Source: Patescibacteria group bacterium
GTDB lineage: Bacteria; Patescibacteriota; Patescibacteriia; UBA9570
NCBI GenBank assembly: GCA_041665365.1
Contig: JBAYIY010000001.1
Coordinates: forward strand, 29,041 to 93,040
Length of the DNA stretch: 64,000 nucleotides
Reading direction: 5' to 3'
The notes beneath the pieces were generated by a model. It did no database searches, was not told the DNA's origin, and saw only the letters and a program-made list of their open reading frames with translations. Within the stretch, counting starts at the first letter, position 1; each line of letters starts with the position of its first letter. Below, in pieces: positions 4,027 to 49,871 of this stretch. A program made the translations under genes and the position numbers.

Positions 4027-4481
4027 GCTTCAAATTTATCGATAATAAGCACGCCTGTGAGATGATCAATTTCGTGTTGAAACACTTTAGCCAATAAACC
4101 CTTGGCTTTAAACAGATGCTTTTTGCCGTCAAGAGTATAGGCTTTAACGCGCACTTTTTCCGGCCGACGCACATCGCCAAATAGGGTTGGACACGATAAA
4201 CAACCTTCTTCCATAACATTCATGGTTTTAGAAGAAAATACAATTTTCGGGTTAGCGAGCACTAAATGATCCGGTGTTCCAGCCACATCTTTATTAATAA
4301 CAAATAAATTGATATTTTTTGCAACCTGCGGGGCAGCCAAACCAATACCGGTATTTTTTATCATGACCACAATCATTTGTTGACCTAATTCAACATAATT
4401 TGGTAATTCTGCAATGGGCAAATTATGCGATTTTGCCCGTAATATCTTATTGGGTTGTAGGGTAAGAGGTAATACTTCCAT
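4023..4481 (-). CDS. def: peptide deformylase
   Basis: Motifs 'GIGLAAPQV', 'EGCLS' and 'HEIDHL' (metal ligands). Confidence 0.9.
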   Translation of the reverse strand: MEVLPLTLQPNKILRAKSHNLPIAELPNYVELGQQMIVVMIKNTGIGLAAPQVAKNINLFVINKDVAGTPDHLVLANPKIVFSSKTMNVMEEGCLSCPTLFGDVRRPEKVRVKAYTLDGKKHLFKAKGLLAKVFQHEIDHLTGVLIIDKFEA

Positions 4482-4486
4482 AAACG

Positions 4487-5800
4487 CTAGATTAACACAT
4501 ATGGCGGATAATGAAAACGTTTACGCTCGCGCAATGTTTGTTTGTACCATTGCTCTGGATAGGGCTGATGAAGCGCTTGAATTACTGGGTGATCTGGAGC
4601 ATAAGTTTGTATATACAAACGGGCGACACGGTTACGAAGCCAGATTAATTGTTGGAGAGTGGTTTCATGACTGCGATAATCAGGCAGGGTTAATTGTGCA
4701 TCAAGGCTAGTAGCAATGACAGTATCAATTGTGCTCCAATCGAGTTTATTAAACAGTGCGGTTGTTCCAACAATGATGGTTTTATCCGGAAACATTTGTT
4801 TGATCGTTTTATCAATGACGTTAACCGTCCGATTATGCCACAACACCACATGCGTAGCTTCGGCCATGGCGGCCAAGACACCCGGTGCAAACAAAACACC
4901 TGGCGACGAAGCTATAGTGGTAATTTTGGGTAAATAATCTTCCGTTAAAAGCGCAGTAACAATCGGTTGATGCGCCACTTGCTCGGTGCGCGGTGCCATA
5001 CTCAGGTAAACAGCGTAAGTTTGTTTATCCACGACAGTTTGAACGTGATAACGTGGTTTCATATCCCACTGTTCATGAGCAGAATTTTCTGGATCAAGCA
5101 CGATTACTCGCGTTGCCTCGGTTAAAGGTAAAAGCGACAATCTTTTTGTACCAATGAGAACACCAGGCTGATGATTTACTAATACCTGCCATGCCGATTG
5201 AATGGTATCTTTATGTTTAGCTTCGACTACTAGTGGATGATATTGGGCCACAACGCCTGACCAATAGGCTATCTGAGTGTGATCAGGACAAATAATAACC
5301 ACCGGACCCTTTACGTGTTTAATCAAACCAAGCACAACCGCGGCGGCTTCATTACTTCGTTGATAAAGGATTGTACTTGAACTCTGCAATGAGACAACGG
5401 TATCGACAACTTGTTGAATGACCGCTTGGCGTTTTTTTTGAATAACCAAGGCACGCGGTAAGACTGGCTGTGGAGCGGTTTTTAATGCTTTTTTCTTATG
5501 AAACTGCGGGAGACAAGCCAGATAGGCGGATGATAAACTAATCTCATAATGATCGGCTAGCCAATGTAAAAAATTGTTGTATGGCTCTGGTAATTTATCG
5601 GGTAAGACAGTTTCGATCCATTTGGCGGTGGGATAAGGAGTAACATTATTGTCTTGCACAACACCAAGCACACTTGAATTACGCCAGGGAATCATTACCA
5701 ACTGACCTTTAACTAGAGCAGCGGTTGACCGATAGGTAAATTGATCCTTGCCACGAATCACCCGAATCACCGGACTGACCAGTACGTAACAGTCTGACAT
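4487..5800 (-). CDS. PriA-like primosomal protein N' homologue with degenerate helicase motifs
   Basis: N-terminal 3'-DNA-binding-domain-like region ('FTYRSTAALVKGQLVMIPWRNSSVLGVVQD'). Walker-B position reads 'VLDPENS' instead of DEEH. No GxGKT Walker A and no Cys-rich zinc region. Ends at the conserved 'YPP' motif. Conserved priA-def-fmt context. Confidence 0.5.
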   Translation of the reverse strand: MSDCYVLVSPVIRVIRGKDQFTYRSTAALVKGQLVMIPWRNSSVLGVVQDNNVTPYPTAKWIETVLPDKLPEPYNNFLHWLADHYEISLSSAYLACLPQFHKKKALKTAPQPVLPRALVIQKKRQAVIQQVVDTVVSLQSSSTILYQRSNEAAAVVLGLIKHVKGPVVIICPDHTQIAYWSGVVAQYHPLVVEAKHKDTIQSAWQVLVNHQPGVLIGTKRLSLLPLTEATRVIVLDPENSAHEQWDMKPRYHVQTVVDKQTYAVYLSMAPRTEQVAHQPIVTALLTEDYLPKITTIASSPGVLFAPGVLAAMAEATHVVLWHNRTVNVIDKTIKQMFPDKTIIVGTTALFNKLDWSTIDTVIATSLDAQLTLPDYRSHETTLQQLIWLRNRVARLYIQTYAPDHPVIQALHQPYPEQWYKQTLRERKRFHYPPYVLI

Positions 5801-8722: not shown

Positions 8723-10115
8723 AGTTCGCACTCGGTTTGCCCCTTCACCTACCGGTAATCTCCACATTGGCGGCGCGCGCACGGCTTTGTATTCTTATTT
8801 ATGGGCGAAGAAAAACCATGGTAAATTTTTCTTAAGAATTGAAGATACTGATCAGACTAGATATCAAGCTGGCGCCGAGCAATCAATTTTGGCTGGTTTA
8901 CAATGGCTGGGTTTGGCATGGGATGGAGAGATAGTTAAACAATCTACCCGTACAGCCATCTATCGAGAGTATGCTGAACAACTGTTACAAGACCATAAAG
9001 CCTACCGTTGTTTTTGCAGTGCTGAACGGTTAGATCTAATGCGTGAATTGCAAAAGAAAAAAGGGCGCGCCCCTAAATATGATAAAACCTGTTTACACTT
9101 ATCGGCTGAAGAACTGTCGGCCAAGTTAGCCAATCATGAACCGTACGTCATTCGGTTAAATATTGAACCGACCGGTGTTGTTCGAATCACCGATTTAGTA
9201 CGCGGACCAATTGAATTTGCGTGCGCTGAGCTGGATGATCAGATTTTGTTAAAATCCGATGGTTTTCCGACGTATCATTTAGCCAATGTCATTGACGATC
9301 ATGCTGCCGGTATAACAGATGTCATTCGCGGTGAAGAATGGATTCCATCGACGCCTAAACATGTCTTGTTATATCAAGCCTTTGGTTGGCAACCACCCAC
9401 CTTTGCTCATTTGTCATTGTTCATCAATAAAGGGGGAGGGAAGTTATCCAAACGTGAAGGCGCTGCCGCATTACTAGAATATAAACAACAAGGCTATCTA
9501 CCTGAAGCGGTGATTAATTTTATTGCGCTGTTGGGTTGGAATCCTAAAACCACCCAAGAGTTTTTTAGCCTAACCGAACTAGTACAAGCGTTTGACCTGA
9601 AGCAAGTAAATACAGCGAATCCCATTTTTGATACAGACAAACTTGATTGGTATAATGGCCAATATATTCGTAAATTAACCCCGGCACAATTACTGGAACA
9701 ATGTCGACCATATTTGCCAGAGGCCGACATGGATTATCAACAAAAAGTTGTTTTGCTTGAACAGGAACGTCTAAAAAAATTATCTGACATTACTGCTTTA
9801 ACTGACTTTTTCTTTACTGATAAATTAGTTTATGAACCAACTTTGCTTGTCTGGAAAAAATCTGATGCCGCCAGTACGAAAAAATACCTACAAGATTTAT
9901 TTAATTTATTGAGTACATCTTTTTCTGAAAATTTAGAACCAGACATCCTCACTTGGATCAAGCAAAACAATTACCAAAATGGTGATGTGTTATGGCCACT
10001 GCGAGTAGCTTTATCCGGTAAAAAAGCTTCACCACCGCCTTTTGCCGTGGCGACAGTCTTAGGTAAAGAAAAAACCCTCAACCGTATCCAAAACGCCATA
10101 AACTTGCTAAAATAG
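8715..10115 (+). CDS. gltX: glutamyl-tRNA synthetase
   Basis: 'VRTRFAPSPTGNLHIGGARTALYSY' HIGH region and 'KLSKR' KMSKS-type motif. Confidence 0.9.
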   Translation: MSEVRTRFAPSPTGNLHIGGARTALYSYLWAKKNHGKFFLRIEDTDQTRYQAGAEQSILAGLQWLGLAWDGEIVKQSTRTAIYREYAEQLLQDHKAYRCFCSAERLDLMRELQKKKGRAPKYDKTCLHLSAEELSAKLANHEPYVIRLNIEPTGVVRITDLVRGPIEFACAELDDQILLKSDGFPTYHLANVIDDHAAGITDVIRGEEWIPSTPKHVLLYQAFGWQPPTFAHLSLFINKGGGKLSKREGAAALLEYKQQGYLPEAVINFIALLGWNPKTTQEFFSLTELVQAFDLKQVNTANPIFDTDKLDWYNGQYIRKLTPAQLLEQCRPYLPEADMDYQQKVVLLEQERLKKLSDITALTDFFFTDKLVYEPTLLVWKKSDAASTKKYLQDLFNLLSTSFSENLEPDILTWIKQNNYQNGDVLWPLRVALSGKKASPPPFAVATVLGKEKTLNRIQNAINLLK

Positions 10116-42059: not shown

Positions 42060-42581
42060 TTAGCACTCGTTGGCCAGTTTTGGTTTCGATATCTTTGCGA
42101 GCGTTGCCCAGGCTTTGCGGATTTCAATACTCTTCAGCCGTTGGTTCACCCAATCCGGGCTATAGCCTTTTTTTAAATAGGTTTTTAAAGCTCGACTGAT
42201 AGCTAATTCTGGATCAGCCGTTTCTTCTAAACGTTCATACCCTACCTGTGCCAACCAAAGTTTAAACGGCTCAGCATTTGGTGAGGGAATGGATTGAATT
42301 AGTCGGAGCATAGTTTCGGTATCAGCTGCGTCAGTTATGTAATACTTACCGTCTGATGACTGCAATTTCAGTTGGTGACATTTTGTCACCAACTCACTTC
42401 CCTCTTTACGGAGTCGTTCTGCCAGCTTATTCCAGTACTTCCTAGCATCAACACTGTCAGTTAGGACACGAACCACGTCAATAACCGAAAAGTACCACAA
42501 TTCTTTGTCTGCGTCCCAATGGCGTCTGATCTGGCTACCTTGAAATAAGGCAATGGCTTCTTTTTTAGATTTCATAACCAA
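42060..42581 (-). CDS. Bro-N domain protein (DinD / phage-antirepressor-like)
   Basis: 'IRRHWDADKELWYFSVIDVVRVLTDSVDARKYWNKLAERL' resembles Bro-N/DinD family N-termini. Locally higher GC (~47% by eye). Confidence 0.5.
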   Translation of the reverse strand: MVMKSKKEAIALFQGSQIRRHWDADKELWYFSVIDVVRVLTDSVDARKYWNKLAERLRKEGSELVTKCHQLKLQSSDGKYYITDAADTETMLRLIQSIPSPNAEPFKLWLAQVGYERLEETADPELAISRALKTYLKKGYSPDWVNQRLKSIEIRKAWATLAKISKPKLANEC

Positions 42582-42658
42582 ATCTTACCCCAAAAAAAGG
42601 CTATTGTAAAGGCCGTTTTAAGCCAAAATTGGCTTATTAGTTAGCATGGGTTAAATCC

Positions 42659-43072
42659 CTACCAATTTAAATACGTAATCGTGAGTTGCAATATGGTCGC
42701 GAATGTCACCCACAACAAATAGGGTATCTGAACATACGCCACCCATCGTATCCGGGGATAAATGACTACCATACACCAAATGAGGGTGCTGAGCACTAGG
42801 AGAATATCCACGGCTGCCAGCCAGTTGCTTCTTAGGCCAAACTGAATTGGAGTGAAGACAGCATTAAAGATCAGGTTCAACACAAATGGTACGGCCATCA
42901 TCCGCGGTAATTGTTTCTTCCAGACCATCCAAAATACTGTACCAAACGAAATGGCAATCAATCCGTACAGCACCGTCCACGCTGGGCCAAATAACCAGGT
43001 TGGCGGCGCCCAGGTGGGTTTAATCAATTGTGCATACCAGCTAGGGATGTCCATTAGGTGTAGTATAGTCAA
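42659..43072 (-). CDS. TspO/MBR (tryptophan-rich sensory protein) family membrane protein
   Basis: 'PSWYAQLIKPTWAPPTWLFGPAWTVLYGLIAISF' signature N-terminus and Trp-rich TM helices. Confidence 0.7.
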   Translation of the reverse strand: MTILHLMDIPSWYAQLIKPTWAPPTWLFGPAWTVLYGLIAISFGTVFWMVWKKQLPRMMAVPFVLNLIFNAVFTPIQFGLRSNWLAAVDILLVLSTLIWCMVVIYPRIRWVAYVQIPYLLWVTFATILQLTITYLNW

Positions 43073-43147
43073 TCGCGGATTTCTTGCATAGATTAAAGGG
43101 TTTTATTACACTGAAGCTGGTTGGGGTGGGATGGATGGTGTGGGGGT

Positions 43148-43429
43148 TTATTTTTTGAACTTTGGCCATCGATTATAACCCACCGACGGATCATTGGATT
43201 TTAACTTTTTTATATAATCAACCTCAATTTTATTTACTTCCTCATCAGGTGCATCTTCAGATTGCCAAAGAATTTCTCGCCGAATAGTAAAATCTTTTTT
43301 ATCAGTGTCTGAAAAATCTTGCTCAAGTATTTTACTATCAGGGCTACCGAAGTATCTAAAAGTCCCGGTCAAATCTTTACCAACATAGATTTTCCCGTTT
43401 GGATATGTGATTTTATATATCCACTTCAT
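43148..43429 (-). CDS. small GIY-YIG nuclease superfamily protein (YhbQ/UPF0213-like)
   Basis: 'WIYKITYPNGKIYVGKDLTG' matches the GIY-(x10)-YIG spacing. No additional domain. AT-rich. Confidence 0.45.
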   Translation of the reverse strand: MKWIYKITYPNGKIYVGKDLTGTFRYFGSPDSKILEQDFSDTDKKDFTIRREILWQSEDAPDEEVNKIEVDYIKKLKSNDPSVGYNRWPKFKK

Positions 43430-43501
43430 ACAGTGTTACTAAGTAAAAAGTTATTGAATAGTTATTTCCGTTAAATTGGTGGGAATGGGGTGAGTGGTTT
43501 C

Positions 43502-43984
43502 CTATCTATTAACTACCGGCAAATATGTGCATCTGCAAAATGGTTTGCCATTTTGATTCATATCATAAGTGCAACGTGGATTTGGTATTGGCATATTTTC
43601 AAAAGCCTCTTTCAAATCAAATATTTTACCGCTATTAATATTACAGTGAATGCAACCTGAATTACATAAAATCTCCACTTTTTCACAGCCCAGTTCCTTA
43701 AGTATTTGCAATTCCAATTTTGCGGCAGCAGCATTTTCTTTAAAACTGTCTTTTCCTTCCTCATTCAGATACAGAGCCATTGTGAAATAAATCATTTTTT
43801 GATCTTGCAGGTCAGTGGTTTTAAGAATTACTAAATTAAACAATGACCATAATGTGTCACCATCAGATGCAGGTTGACCAAATTTCTTTGTTAGCTTTTC
43901 CTTCTGATTCTCAAAATCCTTCCCAGATACACCATAAGCTGATAGAGAATTAAGATATTTTTTTATATAGGCCATAAAACTCAT
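43502..43984 (-). CDS. hypothetical protein with Cys-rich C-terminus (putative metal-binding)
   Basis: C-terminal 'CEKVEILCNSGCIHCN...PRCTYD...FCRCTY' cluster of nine Cys. I recognise no family. Confidence 0.4.
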   Translation of the reverse strand: MSFMAYIKKYLNSLSAYGVSGKDFENQKEKLTKKFGQPASDGDTLWSLFNLVILKTTDLQDQKMIYFTMALYLNEEGKDSFKENAAAAKLELQILKELGCEKVEILCNSGCIHCNINSGKIFDLKEAFENMPIPNPRCTYDMNQNGKPFCRCTYLPVVNR

Positions 43985-44042
43985 TTTAGAATAACATCAC
44001 CACCTTTGGCTATATGATCCAAATTGGAAAATGTTACATTTT

Positions 44043-44780
44043 CTAATAGTGAAAACGTGGGTCAGTTGATAATTCATCCTTCAGCTTCTGATTCTGCTGT
44101 CCTAATTCTTTGAGCCTAGGAATAAAACTATCTATAAATTGCATTTCTTGAGAGTTATTGTTTATGTCATCAAATAAATCCATTAAGCCCATCGCGATAT
44201 TTCCCACCAACCACAAATCAGATTTGACATGTAACTCATCCTCTAAATCAAAATAGGGTGTATCAAATTGCCCTGCAACTCTATTGAAACTGAATGTTTT
44301 CATAGCATAGATAATATTTGAATGTGAAGTGGTCGAATTAATATGATCCTTAATTTTCTGTATGTGGTTAGAACCGTCACGATGATACGTTGTGATCCAT
44401 TTGTACCTTTTATTCTTTAGTGCGTCTGATGCTTTCAGTATTCCTTGTTCATCGTAATCAGCAAAACCATCAACCGACGGATTGGCAATTGCATAAGCAG
44501 CACATGTACCGGCTTCCAAAACCTGACGTAAGTCCATCATGGCTTGCGTGTGATGCAACCTAAGTGCGGAGAATAGGGCAAGTGTGTGATGTTTTCTAAT
44601 CTGTGACAGAAAAATTACAAAAACTCCTAGTTTGGGGCTAACTGACTTCAAAAAAGTATTTAGGAGAGTATTTAAGTTTGATGCATTTAGAAAATGCTCG
44701 TCATATCGTACTTTCCCTTCGAGAACCAGTTTTGTCTCAGTCTCAATAATCTCACCGATAGTTCCCTGCTTGATTCCCAT
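44043..44780 (-). CDS. hypothetical protein
   Basis: Unrecognised 245-aa ORF. Starts 5 bp after the alaS stop. AT-rich (~33% GC by eye). Confidence 0.4.
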   Translation of the reverse strand: MGIKQGTIGEIIETETKLVLEGKVRYDEHFLNASNLNTLLNTFLKSVSPKLGVFVIFLSQIRKHHTLALFSALRLHHTQAMMDLRQVLEAGTCAAYAIANPSVDGFADYDEQGILKASDALKNKRYKWITTYHRDGSNHIQKIKDHINSTTSHSNIIYAMKTFSFNRVAGQFDTPYFDLEDELHVKSDLWLVGNIAMGLMDLFDDINNNSQEMQFIDSFIPRLKELGQQNQKLKDELSTDPRFHY

Positions 44781-44785
44781 AAATA

Positions 44786-46552
44786 TTAACTCTCCTCCAC
44801 CACCGCCTTAATCCGCCTCACGCCAGCGGAACAAGCTTCTTCCTTCAGGATCTTAAAGTGACCAACCTCTTGAGTATTGTTCACATGCGGGCCACCGCAG
44901 AATTCTTTGGAGAAATCACCAACGATGTAGACTTTCACTTTGACGTCGTACTTGCTATCGAATAAACCAATGGCTCCCAGCTTATGGGCTTCTTCCACAC
45001 TCATGATTTCATAATGCACCGGCAAAGCACGTTTAACTTGTTCGTTGACCATGTCTTCAACTTGTTTAAGTTGTTCAGTGGTCATTTTTTCGGGGTGGGA
45101 AAAATCGAAACGGAGACGCTCCGGGGTGATGTTGGAACCTTTTTGGTAGACATGCGGACCGAGGATGCGGCGGAGGGATTCTTGCAATAAGTGTGTGGCG
45201 GTGTGACCGCGGATGGTTTCCCAGGAGGCATCGGCTAGACCACCTTTGAACCGTTTTTGGGCACCAGCGCGGGATTGCTCTTGGTGTTGTTTATAAAAAT
45301 CATTGAAGCCATCTTCATCTATCGTCAGGTTTTTTTCTTTGGCCATTTCTTGAGTAAATTCTAAGGGGAAACCATACGTATCAAAGAGATGAAAAGCATG
45401 CTCCCCCAACATAACTCCACCACGAGGAATGTTTACAGTGAGCCTATCGAACTGTTTTTCCCCTTTTTCTAAAGTCTTGGCAAATTTTTCTTCTTCATTA
45501 ACTAACTCTAGTTTGATTTCGGAACGTAAATCATTAAATTTCGGATAATATTGTTTGAACATATCAATAACGATGTCGGCTAGGTCTTGTAAAAAATAAC
45601 CTTTGATACCTAATTTACGTCCATGACGAATAGCGCGGCGAATTAAACGACGCAATACATAACCTTGATCGATATTTGAAGGTGAGGCACCATCGCAAAT
45701 CATAAATGTAGCAGCGCGAACGTGATCGCAGATTATTTCCTTTGAAGTATCCCCGTGGGTGGTGGCCAGTTGATTGATTTTATCCATGATTGGGACAAAC
45801 AAATCGGTTTTATACACCTCGTCTAAACCATTGAGCACAGCGGTGACGCGTTCTAAGCCCATGCCGGTATCAACATTTTTTTGTTTAAGCGGTTCAAATT
45901 TTCCATCGGCCGTTTTTGAATACTGCATGAACACATCATTCCAAATTTCCACATACTTACCACACGAACAACTTGGGTCACACTCGGGTTTACATTTTTC
46001 TATGCCGACATCATAAAACATTTCGGTGTCTGGTCCACATGGGCCGGTCACACCAGCTGGACCCCACCAATTTTGCGCTTTGGGAAAAAAATAAATGCGT
46101 TCATCGGGAATACCTAGGTTGCGCCATAAAATAGCTGATTCATCATCACGCGGGGCATCGGCGTCACCGGCAAACACACTAACCGATAACCGCTCCACTG
46201 GGATGCCGAGCCAGTCTTTGCTGGTTAAAAATTCAAAACTCCAAGTGATGGCTTCTTTTTTAAAATAATCGCCTAACGACCAATTGCCTAACATTTCAAA
46301 AAAAGTTAGATGCCAGCGATCACCGACTTCTTCAATATCACCAGTGCGCACACATTTTTGCACATCAGTTAAACGCACCCCTGCCGGATGTGGTTCCCCC
46401 ATTAAATACGGTACCAATGGGTGCATACCGGCCGTGGTAAACAACACCGTTGGATCATTGTCCGGAATCAACGAGGCCGAACCAATAATGGCGTGATTCT
46501 TACTCGAAAAAAAATCTAAATACTTCTGCCTTATTTCATGTGAAGTAATCAT
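44786..46552 (-). CDS. alaS: alanyl-tRNA synthetase (catalytic + editing domains, lacks C-Ala domain)
   Basis: Class II catalytic core ('FTTAGMHPLVPYL', 'FEMLGNWSLGDYFK') and editing-domain 'HTATHLL' / 'CGGPHV' motifs. Only 588 aa. Confidence 0.85.
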   Translation of the reverse strand: MITSHEIRQKYLDFFSSKNHAIIGSASLIPDNDPTVLFTTAGMHPLVPYLMGEPHPAGVRLTDVQKCVRTGDIEEVGDRWHLTFFEMLGNWSLGDYFKKEAITWSFEFLTSKDWLGIPVERLSVSVFAGDADAPRDDESAILWRNLGIPDERIYFFPKAQNWWGPAGVTGPCGPDTEMFYDVGIEKCKPECDPSCSCGKYVEIWNDVFMQYSKTADGKFEPLKQKNVDTGMGLERVTAVLNGLDEVYKTDLFVPIMDKINQLATTHGDTSKEIICDHVRAATFMICDGASPSNIDQGYVLRRLIRRAIRHGRKLGIKGYFLQDLADIVIDMFKQYYPKFNDLRSEIKLELVNEEEKFAKTLEKGEKQFDRLTVNIPRGGVMLGEHAFHLFDTYGFPLEFTQEMAKEKNLTIDEDGFNDFYKQHQEQSRAGAQKRFKGGLADASWETIRGHTATHLLQESLRRILGPHVYQKGSNITPERLRFDFSHPEKMTTEQLKQVEDMVNEQVKRALPVHYEIMSVEEAHKLGAIGLFDSKYDVKVKVYIVGDFSKEFCGGPHVNNTQEVGHFKILKEEACSAGVRRIKAVVEES

Positions 46553-46588
46553 GGCGATAGTTTAGTGAATTATAAGGGTTTCGTCTAG
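46545..46588. repeat. 44-bp direct repeat copy A (alaS promoter/start region plus the mnmA-type TAG stop)
   Basis: 'gtaatcatggcgatagtttagtgaattataagggtttcgtctag' is 43/44 identical to 48743-48786. On the minus strand it carries TATAAT 16 nt before the alaS ATG. Confidence 0.85.
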
Positions 46589-46590
46589 CT

Positions 46591-48750
46591 TTATTGTCTT
46601 TTTGTTCTTAATGCACTGTGCAATTCATCAAATCGTTTTATAATGGTGTAGTCATCTAGTGCAGCCGTCATGGCTTCATAATTATCTGCGTTTAATTTAC
46701 GCAAAATTTCGCGGGCTTTTTCAATGATCGTCGAGGACTTACCGGGACGAATCATTCGTTCGAGGTGGCGTAATCCACTGGATCGTTGCACTAGATATCG
46801 CAATTCGGCAGCATCTTCTGGCTTGATATCAGGAGAAAAATCAATCAATAATGCTGGTAGAACTTCACGTAAACGTGTCCGAAATTTAGGGCTGTCTTTT
46901 AAGAGGCGATCAAACTCTGAGCGTCCTTTCAATTCTTCATACACTTGTTTTTGTAAGGTGTTGTCTTTAAAAATAAATTTATCAACATGATAATCACTGA
47001 GTGATGCGCTTCTAAGATAGGATCGAATAATTTTTTGAAAATTTATAATAGGATCACGTTGGGCAATTTGGTACACGATTTCTATTTCTGTATGATCCGC
47101 CTTATCGGCGATGGTTTGATATTGTTCATTAATCGCCGCTGCTAGTCCGTCAGGCAATTCTGCTGGAACACCGTGTTGTCGCATTAATTCAACAACCTTC
47201 GATGTAAAAAACACGCGTTCTTTGGCACGGGTTTGTTCGTGAATAATGTTCGCAGAAAACTGTTGTCCGATGGCTATGATACGATTATCTTCTACCTGAC
47301 TTAAATCATAGGTGGTTCCAAACTGCTGAATGGCTAAACTTCGATAATAATCTTGTTCTGCAACGCTCAAAGAAGTAACTGGAGGAAGTTCAGCTGGTGC
47401 TTCGTTGCTGCCATCAATTTTCACCATATAATATTCAAGAATATCTTTTAATTGCTCGGAATGATGCGGAGCAGTCAGAGGCATATCAAGGGCAACGGCT
47501 CTAACGACAGGCTCCATACGTAATAGAGTATGATCTAAACCGATAATTTTTTTTGTATCCAGATCTCGTTTTGCCCACGTAGCATCCGTTATAACGGAGT
47601 TAGCTGATCCATCGCGTGTCACGGTCACAAATGAATTCCAGGCGTGCCCAACTTTATTTAAATTATGTGATAAATAATCATCTCGTTCTGGAGCAAAAGA
47701 GTCATCACCCTGCTCAAAAAGAGCGTAAGTATTACGTAATCGATTATATTGAGTTTGATTGGCTTTAAGTGCCTCAAACACACCTTTAACAGCACTGGCA
47801 AAATTCCGACACACTCCATTACCTTCCCAAGTAGGGTCGGTTCGTCTTTGTAAACCTTCTTGCAATAACTGTAACACTGTACTTTGATCAGCTACAGTAT
47901 CTTGACCGACTACTAAATCACCCCGCTCAGCTTTAGTATCACTCCATTTATATTTCGTTAAATCAACTACCAAACTAGTAGCTAATTCTACGGCTTGACT
48001 AGGCGACAATGCATCTAATTCTTTTATCCCCAATCCTTTAGCAATTTCAGCTCCTTCCCCTTTTATATATTTTATAATAAAATTATATAGTTTCTTTTCC
48101 CAACCTCTTTCTTTAATTGTTTCTTGATAAGTTTTAGCGCTTGGTGCAGTTCCATCTAGACGACCGTCGCTCATTAAATATTTTTCGACTGAAGCAGGGA
48201 TAGGATGAGCCTGTTCCGCTGCAGCTACCTGGGGATGAAAAGACTTTAATTCTGAAAAAGCGATCGTATTATCTGGTGAAGGTTGTAGTCTGAGTAATGG
48301 ATGATCAATGACACGTTCTTCGGCTTCAACTGTTGTTAAAAAATAGGCTTTGGCTTCATCCCAAGTATCAAAAATAAAAGAGGTTGTAGCTAAATAATAT
48401 CTGCCAGTTTCATCTATTCCGCCCGGTACGGTCACTTTATAACGGCCATCCGCTTCTAACTTAATGTTGAAAAAATGATCGCCGGCATAGGTTTTATCTA
48501 ATGAAGCACGCTCGGTTGCAATGCGCACATCATTTTTTGATATTTCAACGCGCGCTCTGGCTGTCGCTTCATCTTCAAATCGTTCTTGACATGTTCCAAC
48601 TATTGAACCATTTGAGCTATCAATCAAGCCAGGTAACGACACTTCGAATTTTCCATCGACCGCAACTATACTATATAGCTCTCGCCCATTTGGATTTATA
48701 AATAAGTCCCTCTTTCTTTCACTAGCTCTAATTGATTCAGAGGTAATCAT
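46591..48750 (-). CDS. large cytoplasmic protein with central transglutaminase-like Cys-His-Asp (papain-fold) core
   Basis: 'GNGVCRNFASAVKGVF' (Cys), 'VGHAWNSFVTV' (His) and 'ITDATW' (Asp) have transglutaminase-like spacing. There are ~300 aa of unrecognised N-terminus and ~320 aa of unrecognised C-terminus. The N-terminus 'MITSE' copies the alaS 'MITSH'. Confidence 0.55.
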   Translation of the reverse strand: MITSESIRASERKRDLFINPNGRELYSIVAVDGKFEVSLPGLIDSSNGSIVGTCQERFEDEATARARVEISKNDVRIATERASLDKTYAGDHFFNIKLEADGRYKVTVPGGIDETGRYYLATTSFIFDTWDEAKAYFLTTVEAEERVIDHPLLRLQPSPDNTIAFSELKSFHPQVAAAEQAHPIPASVEKYLMSDGRLDGTAPSAKTYQETIKERGWEKKLYNFIIKYIKGEGAEIAKGLGIKELDALSPSQAVELATSLVVDLTKYKWSDTKAERGDLVVGQDTVADQSTVLQLLQEGLQRRTDPTWEGNGVCRNFASAVKGVFEALKANQTQYNRLRNTYALFEQGDDSFAPERDDYLSHNLNKVGHAWNSFVTVTRDGSANSVITDATWAKRDLDTKKIIGLDHTLLRMEPVVRAVALDMPLTAPHHSEQLKDILEYYMVKIDGSNEAPAELPPVTSLSVAEQDYYRSLAIQQFGTTYDLSQVEDNRIIAIGQQFSANIIHEQTRAKERVFFTSKVVELMRQHGVPAELPDGLAAAINEQYQTIADKADHTEIEIVYQIAQRDPIINFQKIIRSYLRSASLSDYHVDKFIFKDNTLQKQVYEELKGRSEFDRLLKDSPKFRTRLREVLPALLIDFSPDIKPEDAAELRYLVQRSSGLRHLERMIRPGKSSTIIEKAREILRKLNADNYEAMTAALDDYTIIKRFDELHSALRTKRQ

Positions 48751-48786
48751 GGCGGTAGTTTAGTGAATTATAAGGGTTTCGTCTAG
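48743..48786. repeat. 44-bp direct repeat copy B
   Basis: 43/44 identical to 46545-46588. Contains the mnmA TAG stop (48783-48785), TATAAT, and the ATG plus first codons of the 719-aa gene. Confidence 0.85.
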
Positions 48787-49871
48787 TTAATCTCTCTTTC
48801 AATTATCACTCCACCGCCTAATACTACATCCCCATCATAAAACACAGCAAACTGGCCGGGTGTTACGGCTCGAACGGGTTCGGCAAAGTCTATTTTATTT
48901 CCACTGACACTACATTTAACATCTGGAGTGCGATAACGTACTTTTACGGAACACGTAAATGTGTCGGTTGGTCTGAGGCCGGATACCCAATGCTCATCGC
49001 TAAACGTACACCAGTTGGAAAATAAACTGGGATGATCTTTACCCTGACAGATTACTAAAGTGTTATCAGACAGACGTTTGTCCACCACATAATATGGGCC
49101 AGTACCACCAATTTCAATGCCCTGGCGCTGACCAATGGTGTAATAGGCTAAACCTTTATGCTCCCCCACTATTTTACCGTCTGTTAAAACCATTGGTCCA
49201 GGTGCAGCTTTAACATATTGTTTTAAGAAAGTTTGAAAATCAATATCACCAATAAAACATAAACCTTGACTGTCAGGTTTGGTCGCCACTGGTAATTTAA
49301 ACTGTTCCGCTAGTTTACGCACTTCTGGTTTTAATAAACCCCCAATCGGAAATAATATTCTGGATAATTGAGTTTGATCTAAATGGTAAATAAAATATGA
49401 TTGATCTTTATTCGGATCGGTTCCCTTTAACAATTGATTTTTTATGATTCGTGAATAATGCCCCGTCGCGATTTTATCAAAACCCAGCGTCATCATTTTA
49501 TCTAAAAACGATAAAAATTTTATTTGGGTGTTACACATTACATCAGGGTTAGGTGTGCGTCCGGCTTTGGTTTCTTCTAAGAAATATTGAAACACTTTAT
49601 CACGGTACTCTTTTTCAAAATTGATACTTTGAAACGGAATCTTTAAGTGAGCACAAATAGCGGTAACATCTTTCACATCATCTTCCCACGGGCAATGATC
49701 GTACTTACCACGATACGCTGCATCGGCTTCATCGGACCAATTCTTCATGTAAAAGGCTTCTACTTGGTAGCCCTGCTGCAATAATAACGCCGCCGACACA
49801 GCTGAATCGACCCCGCCACTCATGGCGACGGCAATTTTGTTGTTTTTCTGAATTGACTGTGGTATAGTCAT
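48783..49871 (-). CDS. mnmA: tRNA-specific 2-thiouridylase MnmA
   Basis: PP-loop '[14 protein letters not shown]' and catalytic Cys motifs. Start placed at the internal Met 'MTIPQS' (363 aa, matching the expected MnmA length). The longer ORF to 49985 would overlap pdxS. Confidence 0.8.

Follow-up and report, generated by a model that had tools for sequence, protein, structure and literature searches.

A transglutaminase-like gene between mnmA and alaS of a Patescibacteria genome is bracketed by a direct repeat of the alaS leader and start

We analyzed a 64,000-nucleotide (nt) stretch of DNA, called the window, from a Patescibacteria group bacterium (GenBank assembly GCA_041665365.1, contig JBAYIY010000001.1, positions 29,041 to 93,040 of the forward strand). 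A 719-amino-acid (aa) open reading frame (ORF), the cargo, stands here between the housekeeping genes mnmA and alaS, and the unit is bracketed by two copies, c1 and c2, of a direct repeat. All features are on the minus strand and are given from upstream to downstream in window coordinates:

48783-49871, minus strand: mnmA (tRNA 2-thiouridylase), the upstream flank, with its stop codon inside repeat copy c1
48740-48786, minus strand: repeat copy c1 (mnmA-proximal), which starts the 719-aa ORF
48767-48772 (in c1) and 46569-46574 (in c2), minus strand: TATAAT, the hexamer named by a first-pass annotation of this DNA
48757-48762, minus strand: TAAACT, a -10-like hexamer 6 nt before the cargo ATG, in c1
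46591-48750, minus strand: the 719-aa cargo ORF, between mnmA and alaS
46589-48739, minus strand: the payload between the repeats, 2151 nt, from codon 4 of the 719-aa ORF (T GAA TCA...) to TAA AG
46542-46588, minus strand: repeat copy c2 (alaS-proximal), the native alaS leader plus ATG ATT ACT TC
46559-46564, minus strand: TAAACT, a -10-like hexamer 6 nt before the alaS ATG, in c2
44786-46552, minus strand: alaS (588-aa short form), the downstream flank, to which the repeated leader natively belongs

The first-pass annotation had reported a repeat of 44 bp at 46545-46588 and 48743-48786, identical at 43/44 positions. That repeat is present and extends to 47 nt (45/47 identical), with a perfect core of 31 nt, a spacing of 2198 nt and mismatches at plus-strand positions 46544 and 46557; read on the minus strand, its sequence is CTAGACGAAACCCTTATAATTCACTAAACTA[Y]CGCCATGATTAC[Y]TC. 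Copy c1 runs from the final base of the last mnmA sense codon through the mnmA TAG stop and 32 nt of spacer to ATG ATT ACC TC. With ATG ATT ACY TC in both copies, alaS and the 719-aa ORF each begin Met-Ile-Thr-Ser (MITS), and the sequence thus bears out the anatomy first described for the repeat, namely the mnmA TAG, the TATAAT, the ATG plus first codons and the shared N-terminus. The pair is the sole direct repeat of at least 24 nt in the window, where no third copy was found at up to 8 mismatches, and 20 random sequences matched in length and Markov-1 composition gave direct repeats of no more than 22 nt. Given that the payload starts in codon 4 and ends 2 nt past the TAA, it is a bare ORF without a start codon of its own; its 2151 nt yielded no promoter, terminator or terminal inverted repeats belonging to it.

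The repeat is homologous to the alaS leaders of two relatives, L162 and L012, and the L162 leader reads TAGACGAA...TGTAATTCACTACACTACTGCC ATGATT. The context GCC ATG ATT is common to alaS of all relatives, as is a TAnnnT hexamer 6-10 nt before the alaS ATG, with which the TAAACT of the window aligns. MITS is also the native AlaS N-terminus in this subclade (protein P0090 begins MITSHD). Judging from these alignments, the 47-nt repeat is native alaS 5´ sequence, and the homology to the L162 and L012 leaders upholds the earlier proposal that the cargo captured the alaS translational start.

What the repeat brings to expression was assessed against the other genes of the window. Neither of the two copies is recognized as a sigma-70 promoter having a -35 box, and no terminator was found to separate mnmA, the cargo ORF and alaS, so that co-transcription from mnmA is possible. 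Shine-Dalgarno (SD) sites were detected for 1/60 window genes, below background, while a -10-like hexamer lies 5-10 nt before the ATG in 10/60, compared with a background of 3.1% (p = 1.5e-5). This frequency, about one sixth of the window genes with a TATACT-like -10 hexamer 5-10 nt upstream of the ATG, suggests that leaderless transcripts are widespread in the genome. Both repeat copies carry TAAACT-N6-ATG; no RNA structure is predicted for the leader (z of 0.6 and 1.1 for the repeat), nor did it match an Rfam family. The near-absence of SD sites, the enrichment of -10-like hexamers and the hexamer in the repeat together make a leaderless promoter-plus-start module plausible, and we infer that the 47 nt are a complete, probably leaderless expression module.

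The protein encoded by the cargo has no match in Pfam, NCBIfam, PHROG or PADLOC and no sequence match in the PDB. We collected 87 homologs, of which all the named ones are from Patescibacteria; none was found in viral contigs (IMG/VR), and neither PHROGs nor BFVD gave a phage link. Cys314, His369 and Asp389, within the motifs GNGVCRNFA, GHAWN and DxTW, are invariant in 54 sequences, a triad assigned from alignment columns rather than from spatial geometry. The core fold is similar to the transglutaminase-like superfamily. Neither the window protein nor any of the 54 members matched Pfam Transglut_core at E≤1, and Foldseek returned nothing significant against the PDB or the viral structure library BFVD. 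Around this core, the protein has disordered residues 1-20, two N-terminal beta-beta-beta-alpha modules and an all-helical C-terminal domain of ~290 aa. The N-terminal modules match AP2-like and homing-endonuclease-associated repeats weakly, from which nucleic-acid binding is possible; no nuclease or recombinase fold or family was detected in the cargo. The cargo is thus an unannotated transglutaminase-like protein with a putative protease or transamidase activity, restricted to Patescibacteria among the records seen. Its 719-aa architecture and the lack of a Transglut_core match set it apart from transglutaminases and cysteine proteases such as TG2/TG3, Streptococcus pyogenes TglA, LapG and CPR-C4/vasohibin. 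CPR-C4, a vasohibin-like Patescibacteria protease of 221 aa with a Cys-His-Leu triad (PMC9108980), was rejected as the identity of the cargo on its length, its different triad spacing and the absence of a match to its PDB entries.

Composition and relationships within the family bear on the origin of the gene. The GC content at third codon positions (GC3) of the cargo is 0.27, 2.6 standard deviations below the window genes, which is consistent with a foreign origin. The closest family member, P0001 (67% identical), is found in a different genomic context, while the syntenic member, P0002, is 62.5% identical. The three closest members share an N-terminal M-x-x-S, with Ser at position 4 in P0001 and P0002.

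We compared the mnmA-alaS junction in the nearest relatives, whose alaS genes are 77-84% identical to that of the window. Empty junctions, predicted in the first-pass annotation, were found in two of these genomes: L161 has mnmA, a 47-nt spacer and alaS (84% identical), and L013, a metagenome-assembled genome of Kerfeldbacteria, has mnmA, a 9-nt spacer, alaS (78%), infA and ribosomal-protein genes. The gap between mnmA and alaS holds two unrelated genes in L012 and five unrelated genes in L011, and a different gene is upstream of alaS in L162. In the remaining relative, L160, mnmA is followed after 18 nt by a homolog of the cargo (63% identical) that has its own start (MLDS...), and then, after 7 nt, by alaS. 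No repeat duplication is present in L160; a decayed duplication suggested by global alignment was rejected by shuffling tests (p = 0.13 and 0.99), and the native alaS leader is retained beside the family gene (p = 0.01). The annotation had named the gene at this position with non-duplicated flanks in all relatives as the pattern that would contradict a recent insertion; L160 has this arrangement, whereas L161 and L013 are empty. The presence of a homolog in the same slot without the duplication indicates that the association of gene and slot is older or wider than the duplication.

The L160 junction is a mosaic, in that the alaS 5´ end is 91-94% identical to L161 and L162 and the mnmA 3´ end is 70% identical to L161; for the window and L161, the alaS 5´ end and the mnmA 3´ end are both ~71% identical. 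The variable occupants and the L160 mosaic together mark the junction as a hotspot at which cargo is exchanged by recombination through the flanking genes. As a separate observation, alaS and mnmA of L012 are 82.5% and 68% identical to those of the window, while both genes are ~79-84% identical in L011 and L161; the L012 discordance would be another sign of differing histories on either side of the junction. Among the matches listed in a scan of alaS against GTDB species-representative genomes, there were only relatives at most 70% identical.

The locus is best regarded as one more case, and an unusually clean one, of a recombination scar of a known kind at a hotspot of insertion. We favor a course in which an empty-site ancestor obtained the cargo from a relative arranged like L160, by homologous exchange in the alaS leader together with an illegitimate in-frame joint, and we put the probability of this reading at about 0.5. 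The ancestor of the window lineage would have had an empty site, mnmA-TAG followed by leader and alaS, and the donor would have been a related genome with the transglutaminase-like gene already directly upstream of the alaS leader, as in L160. One homologous exchange would have taken place within the ~47-bp alaS leader and start, and one illegitimate joint would have linked alaS codon 4 in frame to codon 4 of the cargo. The topology could be that of a Campbell-type single crossover of a re-circularized 2198-bp fragment or, alternatively, of homology-facilitated illegitimate recombination in which the anchor contains the illegitimate joint; both would leave the homologous segment duplicated at both sides of the insert, c1 as the leader of the recipient and c2 as that of the donor. 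The cargo would thereby gain an SD-less, probably leaderless module and the N-terminus MITS, while alaS would keep its own module, and precise loss of the cargo by RecA-mediated recombination between the two repeats could follow later.

Several observations fit this course: the repeated segment is native target sequence, empty sites and a donor-type arrangement are found, and recombination breakpoints occur in the clade. The illegitimate joint lies after the TC of the Ser codon and may have formed at TC/Ser microhomology from the shared M-x-x-S. Because residues 1-20 are disordered, a swap of the N-terminus should be tolerated. At another family locus, L006 (described below), the differences between the two repeat copies are consistent with donor and recipient alleles. 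The mechanism had been described as unclear in the first-pass annotation, and a known recombination route does give exactly this topology (PMC3240628). In Escherichia coli, 56/60 candidate one-sided recombinants carried a duplicated homologous segment, and these duplications arose by single crossover of a degraded, re-circularized molecule (PMC3240628). Illegitimate recombination facilitated by homology was put forward for serial insertions at type VI secretion system (T6SS) loci (PMC5361080).

A number of points weigh against acquisition by this route. The closest donor found is 63% identical in protein sequence, no same-species strain with an empty site was found, and L160, with its homolog only 63% identical, is not the actual donor. 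A segment of 47 bp with a 31-bp perfect core is near the minimum for RecA-dependent exchange. Since c1 and c2 differ at two positions only, donor and recipient alleles are not separable in the window, and any microhomology at the joint spans a few bases at most and is judged from distant homologs. The experimental duplications were longer, 109-950 bp (PMC3240628). Uptake and recombination of DNA in this manner is an assumption for Patescibacteria, and the rival routes discussed below would yield the same final structure.

The locus was further compared with known systems. Target-site duplications of known transposons and insertion sequences (IS) are ~2-15 bp long and come with a transposase and defined element ends. 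The likeness is that target sequence flanks the insert as a direct repeat, but the short duplication, the transposase and the defined ends are features that the window unit is without. We found no transposase or other mobility enzyme in or beside the unit, whose payload is one ORF and whose neighbors are housekeeping genes, and no terminal inverted repeats pair the payload ends, which lie inside the ORF and 2 nt after the stop. The length of the duplication is not fixed either, 47 nt in the window and 32 to ~70 nt at four other loci of the family (L003, L006, L109 and L116, described below). Neither an integrase nor a shared att core was found; the repeats at the other family loci are unrelated, each derived from the local downstream gene. 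The target-site duplication of the transposon type, with which the repeat was first compared, is accordingly not supported for the locus. A check for further near-identical copies of the unit covered the 64-kb window and gave no second one. With integron cassettes, the window unit shares the form of a promoterless single ORF expressed from signals at the insertion site, but integron cassettes have a structured attC and an integrase, and the window repeats are target sequence rather than element sequence. No attC or intI was found here: 2 nt separate the stop from the repeat, which is unstructured (z 0.6 and 1.1), and the neighbors include no intI.

Closer likenesses are found among recombination events that use no dedicated recombinase. 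Campbell-type integration (Amarir-Bouhram et al., 2011; PMC3240628) likewise leaves a flanking duplication through one illegitimate joint (the circularization) and one homologous exchange; that study concerned 109-950 bp on a conjugated plasmid in E. coli, whereas the present case is 47 bp, natural, an in-frame ORF fusion, and its process is inferred. Homology-facilitated illegitimate recombination (de Vries and Wackernagel, 2002; Prudhomme et al., 2002; Meier and Wackernagel, 2003), as these studies are cited in PMC5361080 and PMC3240628, has a one-sided anchor in a conserved gene, adjacent foreign DNA and little or no homology at the other end. The classical events, as described there, delete recipient DNA between anchor and joint, whereas a joint 47 bp into the anchor, as proposed for the window, would give a duplication. 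T6SS effector-immunity and Rhs serial displacement arrays (Kirchberger et al., 2017; PMC5361080) resemble the locus in being hotspots by conserved genes, with exchange of cargo among related strains and with partial or orphan remnants as one-sided recombination scars. Those scars are orphan immunity genes and 3´ gene ends, in contrast to the duplicated 5´ expression module that is used by the cargo here.

Little is known of gene gain and loss in the small, compact genomes of Patescibacteria, for which this locus offers an unusually clean example: it combines a hotspot between two housekeeping genes, close relatives whose slot is empty, occupied or filled differently, and a mosaic junction. The scar shows how a promoterless foreign ORF could be wired in one step to the SD-less, probably leaderless start module of an essential gene, leaving that gene unharmed. 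Recurrence around the family and possible reversible loss through the 47-bp repeats are handles on gene flux and on the function of the cargo. If the recombination explanation is true, the locus is instructive and adds no new principle.

A tentative alternative, which we consider unlikely, is that the repeat arose when the gene was already in place. A resident family gene, the ortholog of the L160 gene, would have had its 5´ end overwritten in situ by a copied alaS leader plus four codons, through ectopic gene conversion or replication template switching that replaced the gene's spacer and start. L160, a diverged relative, indeed holds the family gene at this junction with no duplication, and its spacers are unrelated to window c1. 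The repeats are identical at 45/47 positions, while the gene beside them shares only 63% identity with its syntenic homolog, which implies that the repeat is much younger than the presence of the gene in the clade, and the shared M-x-x-S N-terminus could supply microhomology. The route needs a non-reciprocal copy with almost no flanking homology, however, and mnmA still ending on the copied TAG. The window mnmA tail (..EREIN) resembles those of L012 (..ERELCI) and L013 (..DRELLV), as for an undisturbed empty-site recipient, and simple vertical descent is disfavored by P0001, the closest member at 67%, lying in another context while the syntenic P0002 is at 62.5%.

A less probable alternative, which we regard as doubtful, turns on what surrounds other members of the family. 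Family genes occupy different neighborhoods in different genomes, and at four further loci a direct repeat brackets a family-gene unit with the downstream copy covering the 5´ end of the next gene. The -10 region and start of pyrD are duplicated in L003 (38/45 identical). The first ~22 codons of a GDPD gene are duplicated in L006 (~80% identical), with the upstream copy directly after tRNA-Pro. A 32-nt -35/-10 promoter of tRNA-Ser (29/32 identical) brackets a 2091-nt unit, consisting of the family gene only, in L116. The duplicated segment in L109 is ~45 nt from the ATG of the next gene (first ~14 codons, ~80% identical, z = 7.8). Family genes were found in a repeat unit of at most 4 kb in 5/26 cases, versus 16/320 other ORFs (p = 0.014), a comparison in which the window was chosen for the trait and the other ORFs are mostly core genes, not recently acquired ones. 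The start-duplicating anatomy was seen in one marginal case among the ~320 other ORFs, and most family loci (about 20 of the 26 with usable flanks) have no such bracket. In the window, L006 and L116, the stop of the family gene is adjacent to the downstream copy or overlaps it.

The second alternative is a de novo insertion with a long staggered target duplication, made by an unrecognized enzyme, acting in trans or being the family protein, or by template switching of the fork stalling and template switching or microhomology-mediated break-induced replication (FoSTeS/MMBIR) type. Landing at gene 5´ ends, the family gene would then act as a unit that is selfish or mobilized preferentially. The same anatomy beside unrelated downstream genes in L003, L006, L116 and L109, its rarity among the other ORFs, the stops abutting or overlapping the downstream copies and the weak AP2-like and homing-endonuclease-associated repeat matches all speak for it. 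Against it, the core of the protein is transglutaminase-like and no fold or family of nucleases or recombinases was detected, the bracket is missing at most family loci, duplication lengths (32-70 nt) and unit contents differ between loci, and the gene occupies this site in L160 with no duplication. Enrichment over mostly core genes is also to be expected for any often-exchanged accessory gene. At L006, 10/16 differences between the copies fall at third codon positions (P = 0.016), a bias that fits donor and recipient alleles better than decay after in-situ duplication, and so speaks for two alleles that had diverged and against a fresh duplication; the two differences between c1 and c2 leave such alleles indistinguishable in the window.

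The recurrence at four other loci does leave a small chance of something more novel. It seems improbable that the family marks a recombinase-free "leader-capture cassette" of Patescibacteria, a single ORF landing time and again at the 5´ ends of genes unrelated to one another (alaS, pyrD, GDPD, tRNA-Ser and a 255-aa gene). If this were true, the cassette would duplicate 30-70 bp of host promoter and start module at each landing, and would excise and re-integrate via the repeats, or be inserted by an unknown activity, possibly through the putative nucleic-acid-binding modules of the protein.

The recombination reading, like its rivals, takes the repeat itself as real. Both copies are spanned by a 365-kb ENA contig from a k=141 assembly (L001), a JGI contig from another sample (L010) is 100% identical over window positions 43065-47448 (4.4 kb), and Logan unitigs of a third sample (L002 and L095) end exactly at the shared 31-mer, where a true repeat is expected to branch the k=31 graph. 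Misplacement of one copy or of the whole unit by an assembler is very unlikely, as three independent samples and assemblers agree on the structure and each copy has its own variants (C..C vs T..T) linked to its own downstream gene, even though every source is a metagenome assembly and the support comes from contigs and unitigs. An exact 41-mer scan of the JGI metagenome collection gave no match although the JGI contig L010 carries the sequence, so the collection is incomplete for this purpose.

Other brackets around family genes were considered for the same anatomy and rejected. Those of L096/L097 and L100 are palindromic, terminator-like elements; in L096 (and identically in L097), 108-nt palindromic elements at 5641-5748 and 8862-8969, with the core CACCGCCATAAAAAAACCGCCCTTTCGGGCGGTTTTTTTATGGCGGTG, flank a 137-aa gene and the family gene and look like repetitive extragenic palindromic (REP) sequences or miniature inverted-repeat transposable elements (MITEs). 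The brackets of L146 and L148 are multi-copy fragments like tRNA 3´ ends: cassettes that include the family gene (L146 1595-6800, L148 4006-9735) are separated by such elements, 30-45 nt long and in multiple copies (..GTTCGAA..CCCGCCA and AATTCCACACCTCTAAAGCCACGGCCCGCCA), which serial integration at a tRNA gene may have left as scars. The L130 bracket was excluded for its 8.7-kb repeat unit, in which flanking repeats of ~160 nt (8286/17010 and 8469/17193) enclose the family gene; the same contig, which has a distant family member, carries at 277-1300 an array resembling clustered regularly interspaced short palindromic repeats (CRISPR), with a 37-nt repeat, GTTGCGGTTTGACGCCAATTATTTATCTGCTAAAAT, at a period of ~66 nt. 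The L144 bracket was set apart as an unexplained exact 127-nt repeat (1-127 and 4194-4320) around a 4.2-kb unit of the family gene and two ORFs, the contig beginning inside the repeat.

Two further loci have repeats of other kinds. A ~120-nt direct repeat in L004 (5890-6010 and 7292-7412, ~80% identical, core 56/61) flanks an opposite-strand alanine racemase gene immediately upstream of the pair formed by the family gene and its 183-aa partner, a geometry unlike that of the window. A tRNA 3´-end duplicate (27 nt exact) and an 88-nt exact repeat in L119 (17957/21308 and 18851/21186, ~2.3-3.4 kb apart) are what an element integrated at a tRNA gene typically shows and have no relation to the family gene on that contig (10001-11932).

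A second variable slot was noted on the other side of alaS, toward infA, where the window has five extra genes on the minus strand at ~42060-44780 (245 aa, 157/160 aa, 93 aa, TspO and Bro-N). No flanking repeats of at least 24 nt were found around this slot, and alaS is directly followed by infA in L012 and L013, with no extra genes. The 93-aa ORF (43148-43429, minus strand; MKWIYKITYPNGKIYVGK...) gave weak GIY-YIG N-terminal domain matches to PHROG 314 and 7168 (E about 4e-4 to 7e-4) and to TIGR01453 (E 0.004), and appears to be a stand-alone GIY-YIG domain of the homing or group I intron endonuclease type in a variable region. For the 588-aa AlaS itself, the next named matches beyond Patescibacteria (at least 69% identical) are from Spirochaetes and Clostridia/Bacillota, at ~60-63%.

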